Shown here: positions 26,763 through 46,000 of the stretch, in pieces
How positions within the stretch are numbered: position 1 is the stretch's first letter
Layout: each line of letters opens with the position of its first letter
Source of the DNA: Blasia pusilla
Lineage: Eukaryota
NCBI GenBank assembly: GCA_050084515.1
Contig: CM114271.1
Span: 27,838,001-27,902,000, forward strand
Length of the DNA stretch: 64,000 bases
Reading direction: 5' to 3'
Notes under the pieces: model-generated
The model's input: the letters and a program-made list of their open reading frames with translations, nothing else
Told to the model about the DNA's origin: nothing
Databases searched by the model: none
Position numbers and translations under genes: made by a program

Positions 26763-27081
26763 ACGTGACCTGCTGAGCGCACGCTTCCGCAACAACAAAG
26801 ATTAAGATTCAAGGAGGGTAGGCGCACGACACGTGGTATCAGAACAAATCCTTGGTGAGCGTGAACTTGGGATGGTATCAGAACGGGACGTTTGAGAAGA
26901 ACTCAAGCAAGGAGACCTCGACGCTTGAGGAGGAACGCAAGAGATACGGAGGAGATCTGAGAAAGCAAGGACTTGCAAATGGGGACCAAGGGCAAAGAAC
27001 CAAGGATGCCGTGAGTCAAATCAAAAAAGGAGAGAGAGAGGAATCAATGACTGACCATGAACTAGAGGAGGAGATAGCGAA

Positions 27082-32076: not shown

Positions 32077-33280
32077 AGTTCATTACTAAATACCCATATC
32101 CATTCTATAATGACCCGCTTATGTGAAAATATTTTTTTCAATAAAAAGGTGGATGATCATAAAATACTCAATACATAATAATCGGATCCTACATCAGGTT
32201 ATCTATTTTATTAAAAGAGGACGGGGTTTGAGAACCCGTCCTCAGGTAATGACATATAGGCATTTTAAGGTCTTAGCCTTACGACACGTGGAGGGCCGAC
32301 ACAAAGGGGGGAGGGGTATTCAAGTAGTAAGGCTTTAGGGGTAGGGAGGGGGCATTCAAGTAATGAACATGTTTTAATTTTATTATTTAAACCACACTAG
32401 TTAGATGGGTAGAAATATTCCTAGTAGAAAAAATCATAAGGATTTGAATAAAGTAGAAAATTAACTTATTTAGTATTAATAATGTATTTAATATGATAAT
32501 GGGGGATTAAAAATATTAATAAAATGGAATAATTTGGATTAATTTTTTTAAGAATTTGAGTCTTACTTCACATGTGATGGAAAGGGAAAATTTTAATGGA
32601 TAAGGAGTAGATCAAATTTTATGGAAGGTTAAAATTATTTAGAGGATTGGGATATCATTTAAATTTGAATTGAGTATTGTAATTACTTAAAAGAGTGAAA
32701 TTTTCTTATTCTTCTAAGATTTTAGAAAATTATTATTATATTTTAAAATTTAAATTATTGATGTCATTATTTTTAATTTAATCGTATTAATTTGCATGTG
32801 ATATTTTGGGAAAGGAAAATAAATTTTAATGGAAAAGGAAAATCATGTAATTAAATAAAATTAATTAAGAATTTGTTTAGTGAATGCGATTTTGGTAGGA
32901 AGAGTGGAAGGGGAAGAATAAATTTTGTTGGAACTTTTAGGGAGGAATGTTATTATTTAGGAGAGATGGATATTATCTAAAGGTGATTTTCTTATTCTTT
33001 TAAGATTTATACGAGTGGAAATTACACATAAAATTTGAAATTAAATATATTTTGAAAATTTAAATATAACTTTTAAAAAAATATCATCGACACCTACTTA
33101 GAAGCCATTCTATTGAGGAAATTGTGCTAGGTGTGCATGACACGGGCAACATCTACATTATTATGGGAGAGTGTCTTCTTGATTTGCAAACACCTCACCT
33201 ATATCTTTGATACGTGACAACTAGGCAACAATGAAATATATCTTCTTATGCAAGTCCCGATGAAAAAAATTTGAATTTGT

Positions 33281-33862
33281 TGTCGTACGAATCCACATCG
33301 TCATACAACATACATCGCTGACATACCATACTCACATACATACATAACATAGACGAGAGCATCCACAAACACCAGTGTACCACAACTGAAATCCGTGAAA
33401 GACCTACTGTCATAAAACACGTATAGAATCACATACAATCGAGCCAAACCCACTCCACGATGGGAGAATCTAGATCGAAGCTTGCGGGAAACACCATAGC
33501 CAAGAGCTCTACTCACTACCAAGGCTAACTCCCAACGCAACAGGCTCAACTCAAAGAACTGACTGTTCTTTGAGTGCACTCCACCTTATATCCTCCAACC
33601 TAAGAGCGGACCCTACTAGAGAAGTCACCATCAACTGAGTAACCCCCAACCCTATGTATGAAATTGCATCTCTACTTAGACACTGCGGCCCTATATAAGG
33701 TATGGCCTCTAGTAGCACACTATACTCTACGATATAATCCGTATGGTCATGACAGTTGTCGTGCAAATCCACATCGTCATACAACATACATCGTTGACAT
33801 ACCATACTCACATACATACATAACATAGACGAGAGCATCCACAAACACAAGTGTACCACAAC
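33281..33862 (-). repeat. 3' terminal block B1-A2-B2
   Basis: B1 (33757-33862) and B2 (33281-33386) are 106-bp direct repeats with 4 mismatches, flanking A2. A PPT-like AGGGGGGCGA (33872-33863) lies immediately before B1. Confidence 0.95.
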
Positions 33863-34035
33863 TCGCCCCCCTAATTGGCGGTTAGGTACCTCTAACTCCC
33901 TGGTAGCCCTATACATCTACTACATACTATACACCTTCTTGGATGCACGAATCAAAAGGCCGGGTGCTAGGTTGCCCCATCGTTAGTCGCACATCTGTAA
34001 TCCATATCATGCAAAGATCAAGTCATCTACCCCTC

Positions 34036-34554
34036 CTAAGTACATCGAGGACAAACCCACCATCCAGTAGGAACAAAATCCATACGTGGAGTCAAACACA
34101 TCATGTGCCAACCCCTAGAACACCGATCACACACCAACATACGGGCTGCGTTACCAGCAGACCCACACAACATGCACCTCAAGCTAGCACGTATCATGGC
34201 TAAGCTTGGGTCAACAGTACCATCTACATTTGGAAGATGACATGGCGCACAATTACGCACATGGTCCTTCCAAAAAACTCCATCACGACCCTCCAACATG
34301 AGAACTCCAGAAGCTAACACCTCGCGCACTCGTAAAATAGTGCGGCCTGCCGTCACATCCAAGGTTTTCGGTGTAATCTGCTGCAAATAGACATAGTCCC
34401 CCACATGGAACCTACGAATCGATGGTCGATAACCTCCACCATGAATGGTTGCATACCGCAACGTATCCCTGTGTTGAGCAATGGCAAGATTCTCAAAGGC
34501 TGTTGGTATAACTCTCCGAAAAGAGCTCGCCTCACGAGAAACACTCTCATCCAC
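34036..34554 (-). CDS. Integrase C-terminal region ending in a PHD finger
   Basis: RFHVGDYVYL (integrase C-terminal), then CMLC...LVCDRCSRGWHMMCL..VPTGWWVCPRC, a C4HC3 PHD finger. Confidence 0.88.
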   Translation of the reverse strand: MDESVSREASSFRRVIPTAFENLAIAQHRDTLRYATIHGGGYRPSIRRFHVGDYVYLQQITPKTLDVTAGRTILRVREVLASGVLMLEGRDGVFWKDHVRNCAPCHLPNVDGTVDPSLAMIRASLRCMLCGSAGNAARMLVCDRCSRGWHMMCLTPRMDFVPTGWWVCPRCT

Positions 34555-34559
34555 ATCTC

Positions 34560-36212
34560 TGGGTCATCAAGGTTCACCACCTCACTAGACTCCCGACAAA
34601 TTGCTGCTGGCAAGTCTGGATCTCGGCCGTATAACAGAAATTAAGGTGAGAAGGAAGCCAAGGATGCTTGGCGACTGAACCTATACCCCATGGCTAACCA
34701 TGGCAAGTGAATATCCGGTCTCAAGATGCCCTTCAGAGGCCATACTTGCGCAATGCCCTCTTCACCGTCTGAACCACACGCTCAGCCAAACCATCCGCCC
34801 TGGATGATCTCGAGTCGTGGTCCGATGATCAATCAACGCCTTGTCACACAAGACCGAAACTCACCCAAACTCAGACCTGGTCGGTCAAGACTTCACCTGG
34901 TGCACCAAAATGACTAAGCATTCTATCAAGAAATGCATACGCCGTTCCTCACTTGCCTTGTCGTAATGCCACCAACTCAATCCACTTGGAGAAGTGCTCC
35001 ACCATCACCAACACATATCGATGATGTCGCATACCAACGGTAAGGGTCCCCAAAGTCCAAATCCAACAAGAACTCCAACCCCATAATAGGCAAGGGATGT
35101 AACGTGGTGTAGGGGCATTGAATGATGCCTCACCCGGTCACAAACCATACAACATGACACCAACTGCTGCACCTGAGTATGCATGCCACGCCACCAATAC
35201 TGACCAAGGAGTAAGCTATACGTACGCTTTACCCCAAAATGTCCCAACTCCTCATGGGCCTGTCGCACAATGCGCTCTCTCTGAGCCAAAGGCGGCACTA
35301 CTCGTACTCTACCATCCTCCCACACACGGAGAATATGTGTTCCCTCCAATCGATACCTCTTAGCATGTTGAAGAACACGGTCTCGCTCCTTGGCACTCAC
35401 TATGCTTGGCACCCTACTGGTCCGTAGGAACTCCAATGCCAACGCATCATCATGAATATCACGCTGATCCATACCACCATCTCCAACCTTAGGATCTGAA
35501 GGCTGGCCATCTACCCTCTGACTAGAGTAAGATATCATGTGGTCCTCCATACTAGAGTCCACCCCTAACCAACATAAAAAGGCGGACGCATGCCAACTTT
35601 GCACCATCTCCTCATCAACCTCGTCATGCCATCTAGCCCAAGTTGTATCCTCTTGGCTAGTACATGGGTTCCTACTCAACCCATCAGCATCAAGGTTGGC
35701 AACTCCAGGTCTATGTACCACCTGGAAGTCATACTCCTGTAAGATAAGAGCCCACCGTGCAAGCTTCCCTATAAGCTTGTCAGACTCCATCAACTACTTG
35801 AGCGGCTGGTGATCAGTAACAAGGGTAAACTGTGTGCCAAACAAGTAACATCTAAAGTGTGCCACAGCCCACAAAACTGCCAAGTACTCTCCCTCATATG
35901 AACTATAGCGCGACTCCGCTGCATTATTCGAACGACTTGCATAGGCACAAACTCCATGTGCTCATCATCATGTTGTGTTAACACCGCTCCAAGTCCCAAC
36001 CTAATCCAATCAGTGTGTAATTGAAATGGGCGCCCTCTGATAGGTCTCCTCAAGATAGGCGCCGCCACCAACTGGGCCTTAAGCTCCACAAAAGCTCTCT
36101 CGTGATCATCTCCCCAGTGCCACTCTTGATATGATTTCAGCAATTGGTTCAAAGGCTTTGCCATAGCACTAAATCCCTTCTCATACCTCCGATAGTAGTT
36201 CGCCAATCCCAT
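34560..36212 (-). pseudogene. RNase H and DDE integrase
   Basis: RNase H: FQLHTDW..GLGAVL and KLARWALILQEYDF...ADGLSR. Integrase HHCC: HEELGHFG...CMVC. Frameshifted core: GPLP, LTDQ, IDHRTT..DHP.ADGLAERVVQTVKRAL. Confidence 0.9.
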
Positions 36213-36218
36213 GAATGC

Positions 36219-37124
36219 TCAAACTCTACTCACATCTACCAGAGGCGGAAAAAGTGCAATAGCCTCCACCTTTGCTTGCTGAACTCCCAAACCACCTGGA
36301 TAGATCACATGACCCAAGTACTCAATATCCTCATGGAAGAACTTACACTTTCCTTGATGCAAACTTAGACCATGAGCTTTCAACCGCTCAAACACCATCT
36401 GCAAATGTATCTGATGCTCCTCCACCGTGTTACTGAACACCAAGATATCATCAATGTAACACCGAACAAAATCCAACCCTGCTAGGATCCTAACCATCAC
36501 TCTCTGAAACTCGGCAGGTGCATTCTTCAACCCAAAGGGTAAGAATTTCCACTGGTACAAACAATCCTTGCCATGAGAGTTGACACCCCAAAATGTTGTC
36601 TTGGCCTTGTCACTCTCTCGAATCGGCAATTGATGGTATCCTGCCCGAAGATCCAAAGTACTGAAAATCTTTGCTTGTCCCACCACATCAAAGATCTCCT
36701 CAAGTGTAGGCATGGCATACCTATCGGCCTTGGTTTGCCGATTGATAGGACGATAATATCCGCTATCCGTGTAGTTGCCATGCATATCCTTTTTAGCAGA
36801 CATGATAGTGGCTGATGCATACTCTCTATGCGAAAACTCCACTAATCCAACCTCCAAAAGGTCCAACATCCTACTCTGAATCAGGTCCCTCTCCATATCA
36901 CTATATCGGTAGGGATGACGGAAGATTGGCGTATCACTAGCCAAATCAATCCGTATATCGGGTCCAACCAGAGAACCCAACTCCCTCATGCTAAAGGCAA
37001 AACAACTCCTATAAGCACGTAGGAACTGTGTCAAGCGTCGTTTCTCACCTCCCGTAAGCTTGGGCCCAAGTAATGGCTCCCAAGTCTCCTCCACTGGCAC
37101 ACTAGAGGGAGGGGACGATGCCAT
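36219..37124 (-). pseudogene. Reverse transcriptase
   Basis: YRPINRQT..DRYAMP, FSTLDLRAGYHQ, LPFGLKNAP, CYIDDILVFS, YLGH. Confidence 0.95.
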
Positions 37125-37394
37125 TGGCTGCTACGCAACCCCCTCACAAGATAGTACACCCTTAGCTACACCATCAACTGAGCAAATAACTCCTCCACCA
37201 GCATGAGCAACCAACTCCACATGCCCAACCATTACATAACATTTACTCCAAGGATGCAAAATACTACTCTCCCCGCCCCCAGCCGATGCCTCTATCGTCC
37301 CGGTAGCCATCGAGCTCATTACAAGGGATGGAAGACCCACAAACATAGTCTGAAGTCGACGCTGCTCGGCCATACCAAGACTCAAAATCCAAGT

Positions 37395-38459
37395 CTAACA
37401 ATTCAGGTCCATGGCTTGACCCAACACATGACGTCGTGAAGCCTCAGAAATGGAAGCAACCGCTGTCACACCAGTAGCAAATCCCATCGCACGCTCTCTC
37501 TCATCAGCGTTAGGCTCCACCAACTGTCGCACATGAGAATCCCATACAAGCCCGGAACCACCTTCCCTGTATGCATGTGACGAGGGAAAATTGAGAAATG
37601 TGGGTAGTGCCATCCTAGGCTGGCCCACACGGTTCACCACTGCCATGGGTGACCGATCAAAAACCCTCCCCACCTGAGAAAGTCGCCCAGTATCTAAGAT
37701 ACTATCCACTGTAAGGCAAGGATCCCGCTGCACTGCATCATATGCTTGACGTAGAACCTCCCTAGGCAACAAGTTTGTCCACCACAAGCGTGGACGATGT
37801 GCACGCGAGCCAACTCTCGCTGCATCCAACAACACCGCTGGTCCAATCCAAGACCGCACCTCATGAACACTCGCCATCATCCGGGTCCGAGTGTCACTCA
37901 ACAATGGAACATTTTCCAGAATGTAAGCAAGAGCACGTGCCTGATGAACCTGAAGATGTCGTAACACCCGTAACATCTCCCAAAACAATCGAGATCTAGG
38001 GTCGTGTAATCCCTCACCACGACCAGCACGTGTATGACCCTGACATGGCCATCCAACAATCACCGAATCCACACGACCAACCCTCTCAAGGTCCTGCGCC
38101 CCCAACAATGCAATGTATGACGGTAAAGCACGCTGGTACCCACGAATAGCTGATGGCGGCAACAACTCAGGATATCTCCGCATCAACTGACCAATATGTC
38201 GGGATGAGACTCTCTGGGCCGTCTCATCTCGCTCCACATACACGTATCTCCGCATAGGAATACCGGCCTGCAACAGTGCAGCCAAACCACTGCTAATCCC
38301 ACCAAAGAGATCTAACACAAAAATGCCCTCCGGCGGATACTGCCATACAATGGGTGTAGTATCCAAAGGGGATAACCCAACTGGACGAGAAGTAGGATTC
38401 CGCCGTGGGGCCTCCTCTTCCTCGTGAGGTATAACAGCCTCACACCAAGCCTCCTGCAC
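37395..38459 (-). CDS. C5 DNA cytosine methyltransferase domain within retroelement Pol
   Basis: Motif I VLDLFGGI, II YVERD, IV GWPCQG (catalytic Cys), VI YILENV, VIII AHRPRLWWTN, IX ERERAMGF and X RRHVLGQA, in canonical order in an uninterrupted 354-codon stretch. Confidence 0.92.
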   Translation of the reverse strand: MQEAWCEAVIPHEEEEAPRRNPTSRPVGLSPLDTTPIVWQYPPEGIFVLDLFGGISSGLAALLQAGIPMRRYVYVERDETAQRVSSRHIGQLMRRYPELLPPSAIRGYQRALPSYIALLGAQDLERVGRVDSVIVGWPCQGHTRAGRGEGLHDPRSRLFWEMLRVLRHLQVHQARALAYILENVPLLSDTRTRMMASVHEVRSWIGPAVLLDAARVGSRAHRPRLWWTNLLPREVLRQAYDAVQRDPCLTVDSILDTGRLSQVGRVFDRSPMAVVNRVGQPRMALPTFLNFPSSHAYREGGSGLVWDSHVRQLVEPNADERERAMGFATGVTAVASISEASRRHVLGQAMDLNC

Positions 38460-38498
38460 TAGGCGATCAGCCTCATGCCGTTGTGCACCGCCTGAACT

Positions 38499-39100
38499 CT
38501 AAAGTGGCACATCCAACGATGAGGATGCCACTGCTGCAAAAATAGGGACCTCCTCTACCTCCTCATGCACAGGAGAATCCATAGCATAAACATTACGCTC
38601 CAAAAAGTCTCCTGGCCAAGTGACTACTCCACTAAAACCAGCCACATATGCTAACATTGTTGGGGAAGACCCTCCTGGTCGAGCCCCATAAATAAATCTC
38701 ACAGGAACTTGGCTCATACGTCCATCCCCGGACTGCCAACCAGGTCTATAAGACGCTGTCTCAGTCCAGTAATCCATCTGAAAACCCATCGGGTGCACAT
38801 CGCTCCTCCAACTAGTACATCATACGACTCGGTGATGTGACTACCGTGAGATACTCCCAACCATGAGCTATCGATCGCATGATCTCAGTCTCAACTGCAT
38901 TAAAACTTCTCCCATTGTCATGAATTGAGACCTATCATTGGCTCCTCCAAGTGATGTTTGAATCTGGAATGGGCAAGGCTCAAGCTCTGACCTCCGAATA
39001 CCCAAACCAATACATGCCGCCTTTCCCAACATCAAAGGTTGGGCACCAGAGTCTAACAAACTCTATCTGGTCTATATACCTGTCCTGTAGGACTCACCAA
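38499..39100 (-). pseudogene. Aspartic protease domain
   Basis: LDSGAQPLMLG (D-S-G active site) followed by PCPFQIQTSLGG. Frameshifted. Confidence 0.75.
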
Positions 39101-39849
39101 TCGGAATATCCCACTCCGGTTGTCCAACATACATACACCAGGTGTAAGCCTCTCACGATCAATGGCTGGCCGGGCTGGTAATGCATCCATCTTCGCCGCT
39201 GCTGTCTGCCAAGTAGCACTGGTACTCAATGCTACACCTGACATAGAGGGTCGCTCCACCGCAACACCCTCATCCACCTTAGCACGTGTAGTAGTAACAC
39301 CCCCACGTTCACATAATGTGGCTGCTAGCTGAAATACAGGAGCTAAGTAAACTCCTAAAGCCATCAACTCCGTGGCCAAAAACAATGGGGATCCCAACAC
39401 TGAAGTTGCCATCCGCAATACTGCACTAGATGCTGCATCCGTGTCTACTACACGCGATGTAGATGCCTAAGTCCCCACTGTCGGCTCAATAGGCTGCGTA
39501 GGAACCATGGATGGAGTCCTAAGCACCTTAGACAACAAGAATGACTGGGGAAGCCTAGCCTGCCTCCCAGCCTCATCCCTCTATGGGTCCAACTCCACAG
39601 AAGCACCACGTGGCTCTGACGCTCGAGTGGCTCCTCTCGTAACTACAGCCGATGCCTCAACTTGTGCTGCACTCGCCATATGAGAGAGATCATCCCCTCC
39701 ATAAGAGGTGGAGGCCCCTGCTCCCGAACCTGATCTATGCTGGATACCAGCCATAGTAGCCAACTCTCGCTCCAATCGCCGATCCTGGCACCATAGTCGA
39801 CTCTGTGTCGAGTGGTACGGGTAGCCACCGTAGGCTCTCCAACCACTAG

Positions 39850-41219
39850 TCCACCTCTACCACCCCTACCACCTCTACCACCTCGGCCTCTCGGAGCTAC
39901 TCCACCACGGCCGCGGCCTGATCTCAACTCTGGATGAAGATCAAAGCAACGCTCTCGAGGATGACCCGGTCTCCCGCAATGATCACACTAAGTTGGGGCC
40001 GACTGAGGCCCATCCTCCAAAGTCCGTCTCCCATCCTCTTGGGGAAAAAACTTCCTAACATGATCACCTCCACATGTCCAACATGACTGTCCTTGTTGCG
40101 GGGCAGCAAATGAAGGCAATGGTCTCTGCGCAAGTGTCCCTCTAGGACGTGACTGAGGTCGTGTGTACCCTCCACGACTCCCACTACTACTATCACTACC
40201 ACCACTACTACGAGACTGTGAGGTGGGCTGCTGAACACGAGAAGTAGTAGTTGTATCCCTACTGAATGCGGATGTCACCACTCTCTCCGGATCCTTCACC
40301 ATGTTAAGCTCAATCTTCTCAGATAGAGCAAACACATGGGTCAATGTGGGTGAATCATCACTCATAAGAGTAGCATCACGTACCCTATGGCGCAACTCTC
40401 TGTCCAAGATCCCATACCAAAATTGGATCGTTTCTGAGCCTCATCACACCGGGTAATCGAAATCAAGCGTTGCATACGAGTGTATGCCTCACGAAGACTC
40501 TCACCAATCTTTCGCTCAAATTCTTGAAGACTCCTCAACTTCTCTGTCTTCACTCCCTTATAGTTCTTCTTCAACCTCTTGAAGAACTCTGCAACTGGGC
40601 TAAACGATGGTGGGGTTCTAGTACCTCCACTAGTACCCCCATTGGTACCTCCACTGGTACCCCCACTCTGGCTCGTACTCGTACCACTCAACGTCGGGTT
40701 GGCTGACATAGTAGGAGCACTACTACCAATACCACCATGGGTGATAGACACATAGCCTAGAGACCAATATTGTCTTGATGCCTCAATCTCAGCAACACGG
40801 TCCTTCCTAAACTCATGGTAATCATCCATGGGTGGTCCCTCCAAGTGCTGAAACAACCCCTTCCAAGCCGAGAAGGGTGTAAACAACGTGGCGTTCCGCA
40901 ACATATGCATATCACACCACGTATCAAACTCCTACATGAAGTCCTCCAACTCAATGGTGCCCACTGCACCCGAGTATCGTCGTGGGCCCTTCATGGCCCC
41001 ATATATCCCGTCCATGTCCCAAATCAATGGAGCTGCAACACTCGATAACAACGTAGAAGACTCGGTGTTTGGAACACCCTCGTCCTCCTCTTCATCAACT
41101 ATCAGAAGTGGAAAAGGTAGCCGATACCTAAATCCACTCCGTGTGAAACCACCACTGTCCGCACCACGGTCCCCAACCAGACCACCAGACAACTCCGTGA
41201 TGACCAACGCGGATGCCAT
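39850..41219 (-). pseudogene. gag: Gag of the split-repeat element, with two zinc knuckles and RGG repeats
   Basis: LQEFERKIGESLREAYTRMQRL; a degenerate knuckle CWTCGGDH; CDHCGRPGHPRERC (CX2CX4HX4C, read through the TAG at 39988); then RGRGG...RGGRGGRGGRGG. Confidence 0.8.
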
Positions 41220-42710
41220 CCCACCACCAAATTACCACCACTAAGTAACTAAGTGACGTCGATGTCGCTGTACTATTCTAGCTCTACTAGCTATGGGTGT
41301 AGGAAACCTAACCTGTCATCACCACAAGAAGCCTCCCACGGTCTACTGGTCATCACTCCAGCCTCACTATCGGTAGCACACAGGAATAACACTACTCTGG
41401 AAATCAACGTCAACCCTAACAATGGGCGCGCAAGCAAGAAGCAACGATGGAGGGGATCCAAACACAGGAAGTCCAACGACAACCCTCCAATCGCAAATGG
41501 AAATCAAGGTAACACAATCCACCAAACATGGCGCCCCCTGAATCCACAGAACCCACCACACAATTCTAACGCAATAGCTACTCCGCTGCGGGTCGATAAC
41601 GAGCTAGTCGAACTCGTAGCATCTGAAAATATCACCTGCATGGAGAGGCTACACCGTACTATGCGCTAGAGGTCCATCAACCAGAAACCTGAGATGCATA
41701 AAGCGCCTAACACCTCTCCAAACAACACCAAATGAGCTACAACAGTGTGTACACTGGCATAGTTAAGAACTCAGCAGTTGAGCGTCTTCCAGGCAGAATA
41801 GCCCAAAGATGGATGACTAGTTATGCAACACTCAAATCACAAATCTTGCAAAAACTACCTCACGCCCAAGCAAGCCAGCTTGCTTGCTTGCTTGCTCCTT
41901 GCTCCTTACTCCGCCTCTCACGACCACTCGCCCCGAGCTACGACGAGTTGCCTCGAAGCCTCAAAACGCCGAGAAATGCTCGAGACATGCCCCTATCGCC
42001 AGGCTTCGCTATGGAGAGAGGCCCAACCAGGGCGCCCCCAACGGGATAGGCGTCTCCAACAATGAACGAGTCACCAACCAGCCAGCCCTCCGATCCGCTG
42101 TCCACCATAGCCAGACCTTGAGCTAGTCCGCGAAATTTCGATCAGCAATTACTTCACAAATCCGTTACCAAAATCAAATCTGTTTTGACCAGAATTCAAT
42201 TGACCACCATAGCTATCTCTCCACAAAAAATCAGCTACAACCAAGTTCTGTACTCCGAGCTAAAAATCAGACAAACTTGCTATCCATACACCTCCAGAAT
42301 CGCAAATCGGACAACGCTTCCGCCCAGTTTCATGCACGCAGAAATCCGCAACGCTCCACACACTCGAGAAAATAGCTTCACATGAGATCAAAATACAAGT
42401 AGCAACAGGAACCTCTCACCCGATCTGGATGAACTTCAACAGAGCTTCCGCACTCCAAGCTCTCCACATCAGAAAACCGTCAAACACGAACCAGAATCTT
42501 CAATCCTTGATAACTTCCAACTCCCTTGACGAAATCTGGCAATCTAAAGCGCGTTGGAAAGCTCTCAGCAAGGCCCTTCTTTCCCAACTAACCACGCACT
42601 AGATTCATACCTCTAACATAGGCCACAAGCCACGAACATCCACGTTTGAGTACACAATCAGCCCTAACCAGACCCTACTGATCCACAATCGAAGCTACCA
42701 TCGATCTACG

Positions 42711-42723
42711 TCAGTTCTTTGAG
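42711..42723 (-). promoter_or_regulatory. Self-priming type primer-binding site
   Basis: CTCAAAGAACTGA directly follows the ...ATTTCA end of A1 and is the exact complement of TCAGTTCTTTGAG at 42899-42887. It does not have the TGG start of a tRNA PBS. Confidence 0.75.
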
Positions 42724-43091
42724 TGAAATCCGTGAAAGACCTATTGTCATAAAACACGTATAGAATCACATACAATCGAGCCAAACCCACTCCACGATGG
42801 GAGAATCGAGGTCGAAACTTGCGGGAAACACCATAGCCAAGAGCTCTACTCACTACCAAGGCTAACTCCCAACGCAACAGGCTCAACTCAAAGAACTGAT
42901 TGTTCTTTGAGTGCACTCCACCTTATATCCTCCAACCTAAGAGCGGGCCCTATTGGAGAAGTCACCATCAATTGAGTAACCCCCAACCCTATGTATGAAA
43001 TCGCATCTCTACTTAAACATTGCGGCCCTACATAAGATATGGCCTCTAGTAGCACATTATACTCTACGACATAATCCGTATGGTCATGGCA
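42724..43091 (-). repeat. Repeat A1 (368 bp, 5' terminal)
   Basis: Co-linear with A2 (33387-33754), about 17 substitutions by manual count and no indels. Confidence 0.95.
42887..42927 (-). promoter_or_regulatory. Putative element promoter: TATA box and initiator
   Basis: TATAA at 42927-42923 and an Inr-like TCAGTT whose A (42897) is 30 nt downstream. Confidence 0.6.
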
Positions 43092-46000
43092 TTGTATGTT
43101 GCATAATTAAACTCTTCCTTTCACAAATTATACATTAAGAACAAATTCAAACACTTTTTATTCATGTGTACACGGAACCTTGCTAGTAATATGTACTAAG
43201 AAGATCATAATATATACTAGGATCCTTATTTAATATTCCTTACCAATCTCTATATATGATAAAAAAAAACCTTGAGCAAAAGTATTTTCGAGAGAAATTC
43301 AATATCGAGTTAAAAAACTGCAGTTTGACTTCCAACTTTGATAATCATAAATCTTAGAAAATAATCGTGATTAAGTTACACTTTTTTTTAAAGAAAGAAA
43401 GCAGTTATTCTAATCGCATATGCGGAAAAGCATACACCAAGGTCTTTTCATGGAAACCTTTCTTTCCAAACCATTAAGGAACTAGAGGTGGGTGGCCGTG
43501 GTCAATCGACAGAGGCCGCCGTCTGAGTGAAAAGCGTCATATTGGATTATTCCAGTTCGGGATCCAATTAGGCCGAGATCCATTATCACGGACGACGGAT
43601 TTTTTTAGTCCGGAGCGAATGAGAATTGGCAACTTGAGACACTTTCGATTGCGTCTCAGGGAATGTCTGATATGATGCAGTATCTCTCTCTGCTTCGGGG
43701 GCCTACTGATGGTATGATTTTTCAAAGTTATCATTATGCTTATTTGAAGTATGCGCCAATGGAAGCAATGCGGTGATGTAAAGTTACCCACCGTACAACT
43801 TAACGACCGAGGAAATGAGTGGGTACATGGACGCCAAAAGGATTCATGGATGACCGGAGGTAAGGCATGCGCACCACTAGTGACGAATAGTTCCTTGGTC
43901 GATGGAGCTCTGGATGTCGAATCAAGCTGACAAGAGAGATCACATAAAATCTTACTTTGAAGTGTCGCAGATCCTGGATTGAAAGTCAAACATACGTCCG
44001 TGGGTTTGGTTTCTTTCCTGAGGAATTTCCCGTGATGAAATCAAACGCCGTTTTCTGTCGTCGCTCGATCGAGGTCCACTTATCTGAGTTCCACTAGGGT
44101 CAAGAAGTTTCTTCCAAGCTATCGAATCTTACTGCAATCTAAAAATCCTCTGCCGTAAGCATGACGAGTGGAGTGTTTTTTTTTTCTGACTATGGAGAGG
44201 ATGGATACGGGGCAAACCAGCCACCTAACAATCTCGGTCATCGTTCTTGTCTCGAGAATCTACAGATGTCGCCAAGGAGAGCAAGCCCCAAGGAGAAAAC
44301 AGAACAATGGAAGCTTTCATCACCTTAATCTACAGTCATGTGTGTTGGAAGATCTGATTCAACAACTTCAATCAGTTCTTCAGAAATAAATCGGTTCCGT
44401 GAATTGAGGACAAAGTAACACAACACATTTGCTTCGCCTACGACCCGGCGAATGACGATGCTCGGCTCCCGGAAGCCAATGGAACCGCAACATGGGGTAT
44501 TAATGACATGAGCGGGCAAGAATGTGCGACAGTTCTCGGCGGAGAGCTCCATGATGTCTCTTCAGTCTCCAGTGCTCTCCACTCCGTGATCAACAAGTTT
44601 GGTCTGTCGGTAGTTATTGTATTGATGGAGGTCGGACCAGGTCCGAATCTGATAGCAATCTTTGAAACGTTTCAAAACAGCTGGCAGCTGGCGTTGTTCC
44701 ATGTTCCATCTCCTTCCTCAACGGCGAGCAAGATCGCCGTCAACTCCCACACGTCAACAAACCCACTGGAAGCGACGCAAGTTGCCTCGGATCAGACACT
44801 AGTAGATGCGATGAAAGTGTCACTCGACAATCAGCTTCTTCCCATATGCAGCATGACTAAGCAAGAAGGGGTTCCAAGTAGGGGAGGCTGTTGGTATTAC
44901 GCACCAACGGCGGTGTCGCTGTTGTGGTGGTGTATAGTCGTATCAATGGTTCCTTCGGATAGGCTATTGTCCTGTGTCGGGGGGTTCAAGGCAGTATCCC
45001 TTATCGAGTGGCTGGGCTATTTCCAAAGAAGACAGATCCTCTACTCAAAAGGAATGAAAAATCCATATGAGAAGAAATGGTCGTCGAAATCGTCGAGCAG
45101 AGAAACGGCCACATTGCACCTGGACGCCTCGATCTTCCAAACGCAAGAAGAGAGAAACGGTCAAAAACGTGAAGGAGCGCCCCACTGCCACGATTCTTGA
45201 TTGCAAGGTCTAGGGCTGGGAGGTCCCACTAGGTATGTCAGGTAGTTTGGTTCTTCTACTGGAAGTCTTTGAAAGGGCCAAGATCCCGAAGGCATGATTC
45301 GTCCTGATGCGTGTACCTCTCACGGGAAGGACTGAGCAAACGAGCCGACTCCATGTTTTTTCACCGGGGAACGCCTGTTCAGAAGATATACGATAGCATC
45401 GGAGAGGAGTAGTGATTAGGATCAGCGGCAATTACAGCCCCGAGAAGTGAATTGGGATCATGCTCCTCATCGACTGGCAAAGAGTCACAGACAAACTGAC
45501 CTAATGGAATCGCAGATTCGCAATAGCACATTGGGAAGTCTTGTCTACTGGCCATTCAATGCTACAACGTGAGGTCCAAGAGACGGACGAACACGAAAGA
45601 GACTTCGTCACCACGGTAGTAGAAGCAAGTCTTCAATAAGACAAGCATTAGAGATAATTTCGGTTTTCGGACTAGGGGGCCTAGCGCGGCAGTACAATGA
45701 ATGCATCGGATGTGCACTGACAAAAGGCAGAGAAAGCTTTCAAGTCTTCCAGCCTCCCAGGGCTTCCTAGCACAAACAATGATAGACCAAACAAACGACA
45801 CCTTGCAAAACTTCCAGATCACGATATCTAATCTGACTACTGAGTCACTCACTCCTGACGCTCGCTCCTCCTGCCGTGTAGCTACCAAATTGGCAGGGGG
45901 AAGCTTTCAAAGTGCATCAATCTCTTGTTGATTCCTTCTCGATTAAGAAGATGTACAGACAACTTCATTGTCCTCACCAACTAATTGAATCTTCACTTTT

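Follow-up and report, generated by a model that had tools for sequence, protein, structure and literature searches.

A gypsy-type element carrying a DNA methyltransferase domain

The window analysed here is a stretch of 64,000 nucleotides of Blasia pusilla DNA (assembly GCA_050084515.1, contig CM114271.1, positions 27,838,001 to 27,902,000 of the forward strand); positions below are counted from its first letter. Its minus strand carries a degraded copy of a methyltransferase-bearing gypsy-type retrotransposon. In the element's own sense the layout is A1, primer-binding site (PBS), leader, gag, protease (PR), C5 cytosine DNA methyltransferase (DNMT), reverse transcriptase (RT), RNase H (RH), integrase (IN) and PHD finger, followed by a polypurine tract (PPT), B1, A2, the dinucleotide GT and B2, where A is a repeat of 368 nt and B a repeat of roughly 110 nt. 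The bases directly after A1 are the exact complement of the predicted start of the element's RNA, and we examine below whether the element primes reverse transcription with its own transcript.

The position of the PBS depends on where the repeat stops. A1 starts with TGCCATGACC after an unrelated flank and ends with ...GGATTTCA at 42724, an end that was set by comparison with the 3′ copy, 9.3 kb away. B2 comes after A2, whereas A1 runs into the motif, therefore the repeat ends exactly before CTCAAAGAACT. With the repeat end directly before the motif, a primer must anneal at 42723 onward, and copying would begin with the final base of U5.

Complementarity between the PBS and the predicted RNA start

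The sequence-only reading had placed a TATAA 30 nt before AGTTCTTTGAG and had predicted the first transcribed base at 42897. Reading of the minus strand agrees with this spacing, as does an independent count along the repeat, with TATAA at position 165 and the 11-mer at position 195. Equally sound was its claim that the bases after the CA end of A1 (42723-42713) are the exact complement of the RNA start. In the window copy the complementarity extends to 14 nt, TCAGTTCTTTGAGT against ACTCAAAGAACTGA, including the last A of the repeat at one end and, at the other, the GA at 42712-42711, which varies within the family.

The 11-mer occurs three times in the 64-kb window and always within the element, twice at the start of R in the copies of the repeat and once in opposite sense at the PBS. 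Shuffles of the window gave 0.06 expected occurrences, and none of 100 shuffles reached three. Similarly, when the 368-nt repeat was simulated 200,000 times with a Markov model, at least 11 nt complementary to the post-repeat bases arose at a frequency of 3.5e-4.

No TGG is found in the 13 bases after the repeat, as had been read from the sequence. A TGG lying about 22-24 nt after U5 was considered as a tRNA-type PBS and rejected, being too distant from the U5 end. The contrasting tggtatcaga-type site attributed to a neighbouring family is also present: the tRNA-Met-type PBS motif TGGTATCAGA occurs exactly at 26834-26843 and 26873-26882 on the plus strand, 39 nt apart.

A further copy of the motif, the left arm ACTCAAAGAAC, sits 5 nt upstream of the predicted start. 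It pairs with 42896-42886 in a perfect 11-bp hairpin with a 5-nt loop that straddles this start, and the same hairpin is present in A2 and in relatives. Assuming an RNA start at 42897, the duplex between the 5′ end and the PBS has pair probabilities of 0.84-0.99 and an energy of -15.9 kcal/mol, and it is included in the minimum free energy fold. Coordinates of all features are collected in Table 1.

Table 1. Features of the element copy and its target-site duplications (window positions)
Feature	Position	Strand	Remarks
Whole element copy	33281..43091 (9811 bp)	-	stops and frameshifts; termini TG...CA
Target-site duplication ACAA, upstream copy	43092..43095	-	4 bp
A1, 5′ terminal repeat, 368 nt	42724..43091	-	promoter, R and U5; 95% identical to A2
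TATAA	42923..42927	-	30 nt upstream of the predicted first transcribed base
Left arm ACTCAAAGAAC	42902..42912	-	same sense as PBS; conserved in relatives
AGTTCTTTGAG, predicted first 11 nt of the transcript	42887..42897	-	proposed self-primer; putative start
PBS CTCAAAGAACT	42713..42723	-	abuts the end of A1; fully reverse-complementary to the 11-mer
Leader, long	40932..42712	-	transcribed in sense; no sense open reading frame of at least 100 aa
gag remnants	39643..40931	-	Retrotrans_gag weak (E 0.0024, below the Pfam cut-off)
Aspartic protease remnant, probable	38871..39062	-	LLDSGA motif recognised by eye; no Pfam match
C5 cytosine DNMT domain in pol	37395..38498	-	PF00145, E 3.2e-09
Reverse transcriptase	36219..37130	-	PF00078, E 3.8e-31
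RNase H	35790..36218	-	PF17919, E 6.6e-13
Integrase	34356..35793	-	PF17921 zinc-binding domain intact, E 6.9e-17
PHD finger, C-terminal	34036..34563	-	PF00628, E 1.4e-09
PPT AGGGGGGCGA	33863..33872	-	followed by GT, then B1; conserved in relatives
B1, short GT-rich repeat	33757..33862	-	ends ...CGACA; from repeat comparison
A2, internal copy of A	33387..33754	-	supplies 3′ R; same TATAA, hairpin and 11-mer (33560-33550)
GT junction, then B2 (terminal copy of B)	33281..33386	-	ends ...CGTACGACA; from repeat comparison
Target-site duplication ACAA, downstream copy	33277..33280	-	4 bp

Conservation of the pairing in relatives

Metagenome contigs were scanned with a DNMT alignment, which returned 118 relatives, and the best 80 were kept (L001-L080). 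An alignment of the 5′ ends contains 19 distinct copies, namely the window and the 18 loci, out of the 80, in which both sites could be aligned. The relatives come from other hosts, and their repeat A is only about 73% identical to that of the window. They retain the 11-mer, the PBS and the distance to the TATA box (29-31 nt), and differ in the loop of the hairpin and in the bases on either side of the duplex.

The sequence-only reading had proposed conservation of the complementarity in relatives as a check, and this was borne out: in register, 89.9% of 228 alignment cells are paired, against 29-49% when the partner is slid by one to three columns. Fourteen of the 19 distinct copies keep at least 10 of the 11 pairs (G-U counted), three of them being perfect. 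The limits of the pairing are similarly visible. One step outward (columns 5/197), only 7 of 19 copies pair, and one step inward of the twelfth pair (columns 18/184) none of the 19 does. Pairing in relatives is thus bounded to 11(+1) nt and stops at the base that had been proposed as +1, which supports 42897 as base 1. The base before the predicted start is a pyrimidine.

Differences between copies are mostly C-to-T or G-to-A decay. Changes on both sides of the duplex were observed in two loci: in L031 two pairs are altered, U:A to C:G and G:C to A:U, and in L041 a single pair, G:C to A:U. At one position of L041, matching changes are found in the left arm, in the R start and in the PBS alike.

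RNA and DNA reads from the same organism

Stranded RNA reads from three runs of the same organism were aligned over 42400-43200. They lie about 40:1 in the element's sense, a strand call that assumes the usual library type, and they cross the A1-PBS junction (42724/42723) into the leader at a depth of 10-29. About 100 reads per run pass from A into B-like sequence at 43088.

Two minor classes of reads were also seen. Four RNA reads of run X24 run from the end of A (42724) on into B at its start, which means that the A2-B2 junction is read through in some transcripts. In each of the three RNA runs 4-5 reads join 42770 (late A) to 43058 (early A) with 4 nt shared, a junction found in no DNA contig. 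This implies an adjacency of A to A with a deletion, in a template or product that was not observed among the genomic copies.

Contigs built from a DNA run (22,520 pieces) indicate a very abundant family in the same organism, and the match between the 11-mer and the PBS is present in this read-level family. Among the 40 of 202 variants that were listed, none at a frequency of at least 5% falls inside the 11-mer or the 11-base PBS. The next pair is variable. In minus-strand sense, 42898 is T rather than C in 81% of the DNA depth and in about half of the RNA reads, and 42712, the twelfth base of the PBS, is A rather than G in 59% of the DNA depth and in 33-50% of the RNA reads. These frequencies are unphased, as contigs measure 83-97 nt and the sites are 186 nt apart; they would fit a twelfth pair that is compensated, being C:G in the window and U:A in many copies.

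A model of self-priming and its alternatives

The best explanation of these observations, and in our view a probable one as judged from sequence, is that, like Tf1, the element uses its own RNA to prime minus-strand DNA synthesis. A simple scheme would be as follows. Transcription from the TATA-containing promoter in repeat A would start at or within a few bases of 42897. The RNA 5′ end AGUUCUUUGAG would fold back over the 174-nt R-U5 and pair with CUCAAAGAACU directly after U5, whereupon the element's RNase H would cleave after base 11 and the freed 3′ OH would prime copying of U5-R. Strong-stop DNA would then transfer to R in A2, according to the ordinary scheme for long terminal repeats (LTRs), and plus-strand synthesis would begin at the PPT before B, so that the reverse-transcribed LTR would be B+A. 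We infer the transcript start, the RNase H cleavage and priming itself from the complementarity, its abutment on the end of U5, the TATAA spacing, the conservation of the pairing with its boundaries and the sense transcripts over A1, PBS and leader. The element possesses an RNase H domain, and a PBS abutting U5 with a self-complementarity of about 11 nt is what a self-priming element is expected to have.

Junctions between A2 and B2 are also informative. At loci L064 and L065 (L064:13263-13603, L065:5479-5819) a 14-nt insert starts with the PBS motif, CTCAAAGAA..., and these PBS-derived bases fit a plus strand that had copied a primer complementary to the PBS.

Several observations weigh against self-priming. 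The left arm has no role in the model, and would compete for the primer sequence in any RNA starting further upstream. The fold of the 248-nt RNA is not more stable than those of shuffled sequences (z = -0.29). The RNAalifold consensus of the relatives does not contain the helix between the 5′ end and the PBS, and pairs columns 15-29 with 118-130 instead. RNA reads on 42400-43200 show no pile-up of starts or ends and no step in depth at 42897; depth is flat over 42859-42993, since A2 also contributes reads to the U3 part of A, and the reads thus speak neither for nor against a start there. Covariation is thin: compensatory change affects three cells only, against 1.5 expected, with at least three reached in 80 of 500 shuffles, and the covariation score was reached in 61 of 500 shuffles, which is not significant. 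An 11-mer identical in two diverged lineages is also expected of a conserved host primer. Moreover, all family copies seen are broken, and activity is shown by none. Thus, of the proposal that the element primes without tRNA, the conservation of the complementarity held, whereas a start signal at 42897 did not appear in the reads; of the suggested covariation between PBS and 5′ end, the doubly changed cells were found and statistical support over shuffles was not.

The strongest alternative, which we nevertheless regard as unlikely, is priming by a host RNA, such as an internal tRNA fragment, a tRNA half or a small RNA ending in ...AGUUCUUUGAG, the copy at the R start then serving another purpose. 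It would agree with a PBS 11-mer that is the same in the window family and in metagenome relatives despite about 73% repeat identity, and with the non-significant covariation; moreover, about 2% of plant elements have half-tRNA PBSs (PMC6317226), priming of this kind being predicted for certain copia lineages of plants. With no TGG in the 13 nt after the repeat, a mature tRNA 3′ end does not fit. Priming by a host RNA also leaves unexplained why an exact complement lies 29-31 nt after the TATA in every lineage and why pairing stops at both ends. The PBS of L031 speaks likewise against it: it forms nine Watson-Crick pairs and one G-U with its own R start but, by manual count, seven and three G-U with the common 11-mer.

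Less likely still is that the motif, present in triplicate at left arm, R start and PBS, constitutes a structural or regulatory element, either a palindromic promoter site or a 5′ cyclisation signal, which could serve packaging or translation, priming being achieved otherwise. The conserved, perfect 11-bp hairpin straddling the predicted start, the left arm that self-priming alone does not need and a consensus fold favouring other pairings for bases 10-24 all argue for such a role. It is opposed by the end of U5 abutting the motif, exactly where minus-strand synthesis must start, by the absence of an alternative PBS within 13 nt and by the PBS-like bases at the A2-B2 junction of L064/L065. Finally, a chance match in a single decayed copy, which only the small size of the motif would favour, is refuted by its simulated frequency (3.5e-4) and by the recurrence of the match: the two copies of the repeat have it, as do the family seen at read level and 14 of the 19 distinct copies.

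Repeat architecture, termini and target duplications

The window copy (33281-43091) and those at loci L009, L031, L039, L044, L046, L053, L055, L057, L064 and L072 have the form A-internal-B-A-GT-B or A-internal-B. All 24 distinct 5′ ends start at the same TGTCATGACC-type position, each behind a different flank, and 3′ ends finish with B (...GACA). Where both ends are visible, a 4-bp target duplication is perfect in seven of nine copies, present in three of four bases in one and absent in one. The full A-internal-B-A-GT-B layout with both ends visible was observed in the window, L046 and L072, and its B1-A2-junction-B2 part also in L044 and L053.

The 3′ copy of A reaches about 110 nt further upstream than the 5′ copy, and this 3′ copy is followed at once by the same 109 nt. 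The possibility of a truncated 5′ LTR accompanied by a stray LTR fragment was rejected, as relatives share the same boundaries with target duplications. Among 23 distinct copies of B1, A2 comes next in 7 and flank directly in 14, with 2 undetermined; the copies in which flank follows B1 have the form A-internal-B, devoid of a downstream R. In loci L015 (6365-6485) and L018, at the same place, an inverted B precedes the U5 end and PBS by about 110 nt. We did not retain them as a variant layout, since the inverted B probably belongs to the end of a second family member that inserted into repeat A.

Four of six distinct A2-B2 junctions (window, L046, L053 and L072) read a clean CA-GT-TG. In L044 (L044:10624-10974) the junction carries a 20-nt insert resembling nearby U5 sequence. 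The end of B1 and the start of A2 form a near-palindrome, GACA-AC-TGTC in the window and GACA-GC-TGTC in relatives. With this palindrome at the B1|A2 boundary, the element termini resemble an integrase attachment junction that has been split in two.

According to the PBS and the PPT, the ends of the cDNA are the start of B and the end of A; genomic copies end instead at the internal palindrome, all 24 distinct 5′ ends beginning inside the reverse-transcribed LTR at the B|A boundary. The GT between A2 and B2 would be the outcome expected from joining of cDNA ends, and the scars differ from copy to copy. These observations suggest as the substrate of the integrase either an end-joined, circular or head-to-tail form or internal sites of linear cDNA.

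We therefore advance, as a tentative proposal only, that a bryophyte-wide family may join self-priming of the Tf1 kind with a DDE integrase that cuts a palindrome internal to the LTR and not the cDNA ends, a combination that is not known elsewhere. Self-primed reverse transcription would yield a cDNA with a B+A LTR, set by the PBS and the PPT, and the integrase may then cut GACA-GC-TGTC at the B|A boundary in end-joined, circular or head-to-tail cDNA. Cutting of the palindrome would give DIRS-like A-internal-B-A-B insertions with TG...CA termini and 4-bp target duplications, and the variable A2-B2 junctions, mostly a clean GT, would be end-joining scars remade at each cycle. Cutting at internal sites of linear cDNA would give the A-internal-B form; copies devoid of A2 may accordingly be linear-cDNA products, dead on arrival, or may result from later deletions between B1 and B2. 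The mirror-image product, A-GT-B-A-internal-B, was seen in none of the 24 distinct 5′ ends, which counts against a simple circle model. We conjecture that this product may be lost faster through its longer, closer repeats.

Coding domains and affiliation

Many stops and frameshifts break the reading frames of the element. The CCHC knuckle motifs of the gag region were recognised by eye, with a zf-CCHC match in relative L045. The order PR-RT-RH-IN is that of Ty3/gypsy elements, and Ty3 RT is the closest solved structure to the element RT (E 4.3e-38). The DDE core of the integrase is heavily degraded in the window copy; the rve domain was found in relatives L072 and L057, and in L072 it stands together with the PHD finger in one open reading frame (ORF). 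This PHD finger occupies the place that the chromodomain has in chromoviruses. Pfam scans of the window and relatives gave no chromodomain match at the integrase C-terminus, and none of the 17 ORFs scanned matched the tyrosine recombinase domain PF00589.

TG...CA termini and a short target-site duplication are likewise those of Ty3/gypsy elements, but two complete LTRs are not found at the ends of the integrated copies. The C5 DNMT domain inside a gypsy-type pol, between PR and RT, and the A-coding-B-A-B layout are both as in Gypsy-DNMT3 elements.

Searches for homologues returned 665 matches for the RT and 180 for the DNMT, the named ones belonging to the liverworts Calypogeia, Marchantia and Riccia and to Sphagnum mosses. 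Matches in the ESM Atlas were generic RT clusters only. No relatives were found in viral_contigs, with either the RT query or the DNMT alignment, or in genome_contigs.

Comparison with known systems

In Tf1 the RNA's initial 11 bases pair with the PBS, and the RNase H cut falls between bases 11 and 12 (PMC7175516); Tj1 was assigned to self-priming by the same sequence argument as used here (PMC4600332). The window family resembles Tf1 and Tf2 of Schizosaccharomyces pombe and Tj1 of S. japonicus in its 11-nt PBS located after U5 and complementary to its own (predicted) RNA start, in lacking a tRNA-type PBS and in its gag-PR-RT-RH-IN order. However, Tf1's transcript start and RNase H cut have been demonstrated, whereas those of the window element are predicted. 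Tf1 has an integrase chromodomain and two complete LTRs; the window family carries a PHD finger, a DNMT and the A-internal-B-A-B arrangement, and no chromodomain, one of the defining features of Tf1/sushi chromoviruses, was found in it. In the window family, the same-sense copy of the PBS motif upstream forms a hairpin with the primer sequence. We know of no such upstream hairpin in Tf1.

Among plants, a survey of LTR elements by Neumann et al. 2019 arrived at a prediction of self-priming for 12% of them, these being TAR copia elements and, in mosses and club-mosses, members of the Tcn1 clade (PMC6317226). The prediction for Tcn1 chromoviruses and for TAR (Houba, Osr-1) is of the same kind as ours and relies on the same kind of evidence. 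Tcn1 elements share bryophyte hosts with the window family, but possess chromodomains and ordinary LTRs. The words 'methyltransferase' and 'PHD' are absent from the text of Neumann et al. 2019, although its supplementary tables may bear on the matter (PMC6317226), and to judge by that text the DNMT-bearing family appears not to be covered by the survey.

A DNMT within a gypsy pol was described for KnitGypsy-Dnmt3 of Klebsormidium nitens (de Mendoza et al. 2018, PMC5890265), the repeats of which are, according to the legend of its Fig. 4c, the 'same as that of a DIRS retrotransposon'. A 2026 preprint names 'streptophytes (Gypsy-DNMT3)' (10.64898/2026.05.21.726589). As far as the published description goes, KnitGypsy-Dnmt3 resembles the window family in its DNMT inside a gypsy-type pol and in its A-coding-B-A-B repeats; its host is Klebsormidium, whereas the named homologues of the window family are from bryophytes (Marchantia, Riccia, Calypogeia, Sphagnum). 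The passages on this element make no mention of a PBS, priming, termini or target duplications, and 'primer' appears only in the PCR methods (PMC5890265).

In DIRS, Ngaro and PAT-like elements, too, the direct repeats are split (A1 ... B1-A2-B2), and the junction of both termini recurs internally. They employ a tyrosine recombinase and make no target duplication, whereas the window family has an rve DDE integrase and 4-bp duplications, which set it apart from them.

Self-priming is thus not new as a mechanism, bryophytes included. The sequence-only reading overstated its interest, because self-priming had already been predicted for bryophyte Tcn1 chromoviruses and for TAR copia elements (PMC6317226). 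Since it is established and already predicted in bryophyte chromoviruses, the priming claim alone adds a family and not a principle. Its presence in a family bearing both a DNMT and a PHD finger appears to be new: in the literature searched (titles and abstracts), we found no paper linking self-priming to a DNMT-bearing gypsy family. If the RT lies outside the Tf1/sushi/Tcn1 clade, self-priming would have arisen independently among gypsy elements. The context of the element is more unusual than its priming, with ends at an internal palindrome and 4-bp target duplications. DNMT-carrying gypsy elements of streptophytes gain a concrete replication scheme with PBS, PPT, R and U5. In this scheme the ends of reverse transcription differ from the genomic ends, and the origin of a DIRS-like layout in an integrase-bearing element becomes directly testable.

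Other features of the window

Several plus-strand ORFs of 100-138 aa lie antisense to the leader (41253-42602), where the sense strand has none; they probably reflect the strong G/T bias of the sense strand and are not genes. A scan for promoters and terminators of bacterial type, unsuited to a eukaryote, gave no matches. A search for tRNA genes found none, either in the window or in 52 loci. A tandem array with a period of 8 bp occupies positions 2570-2927, with 41 overlapping copies according to the repeat finder.

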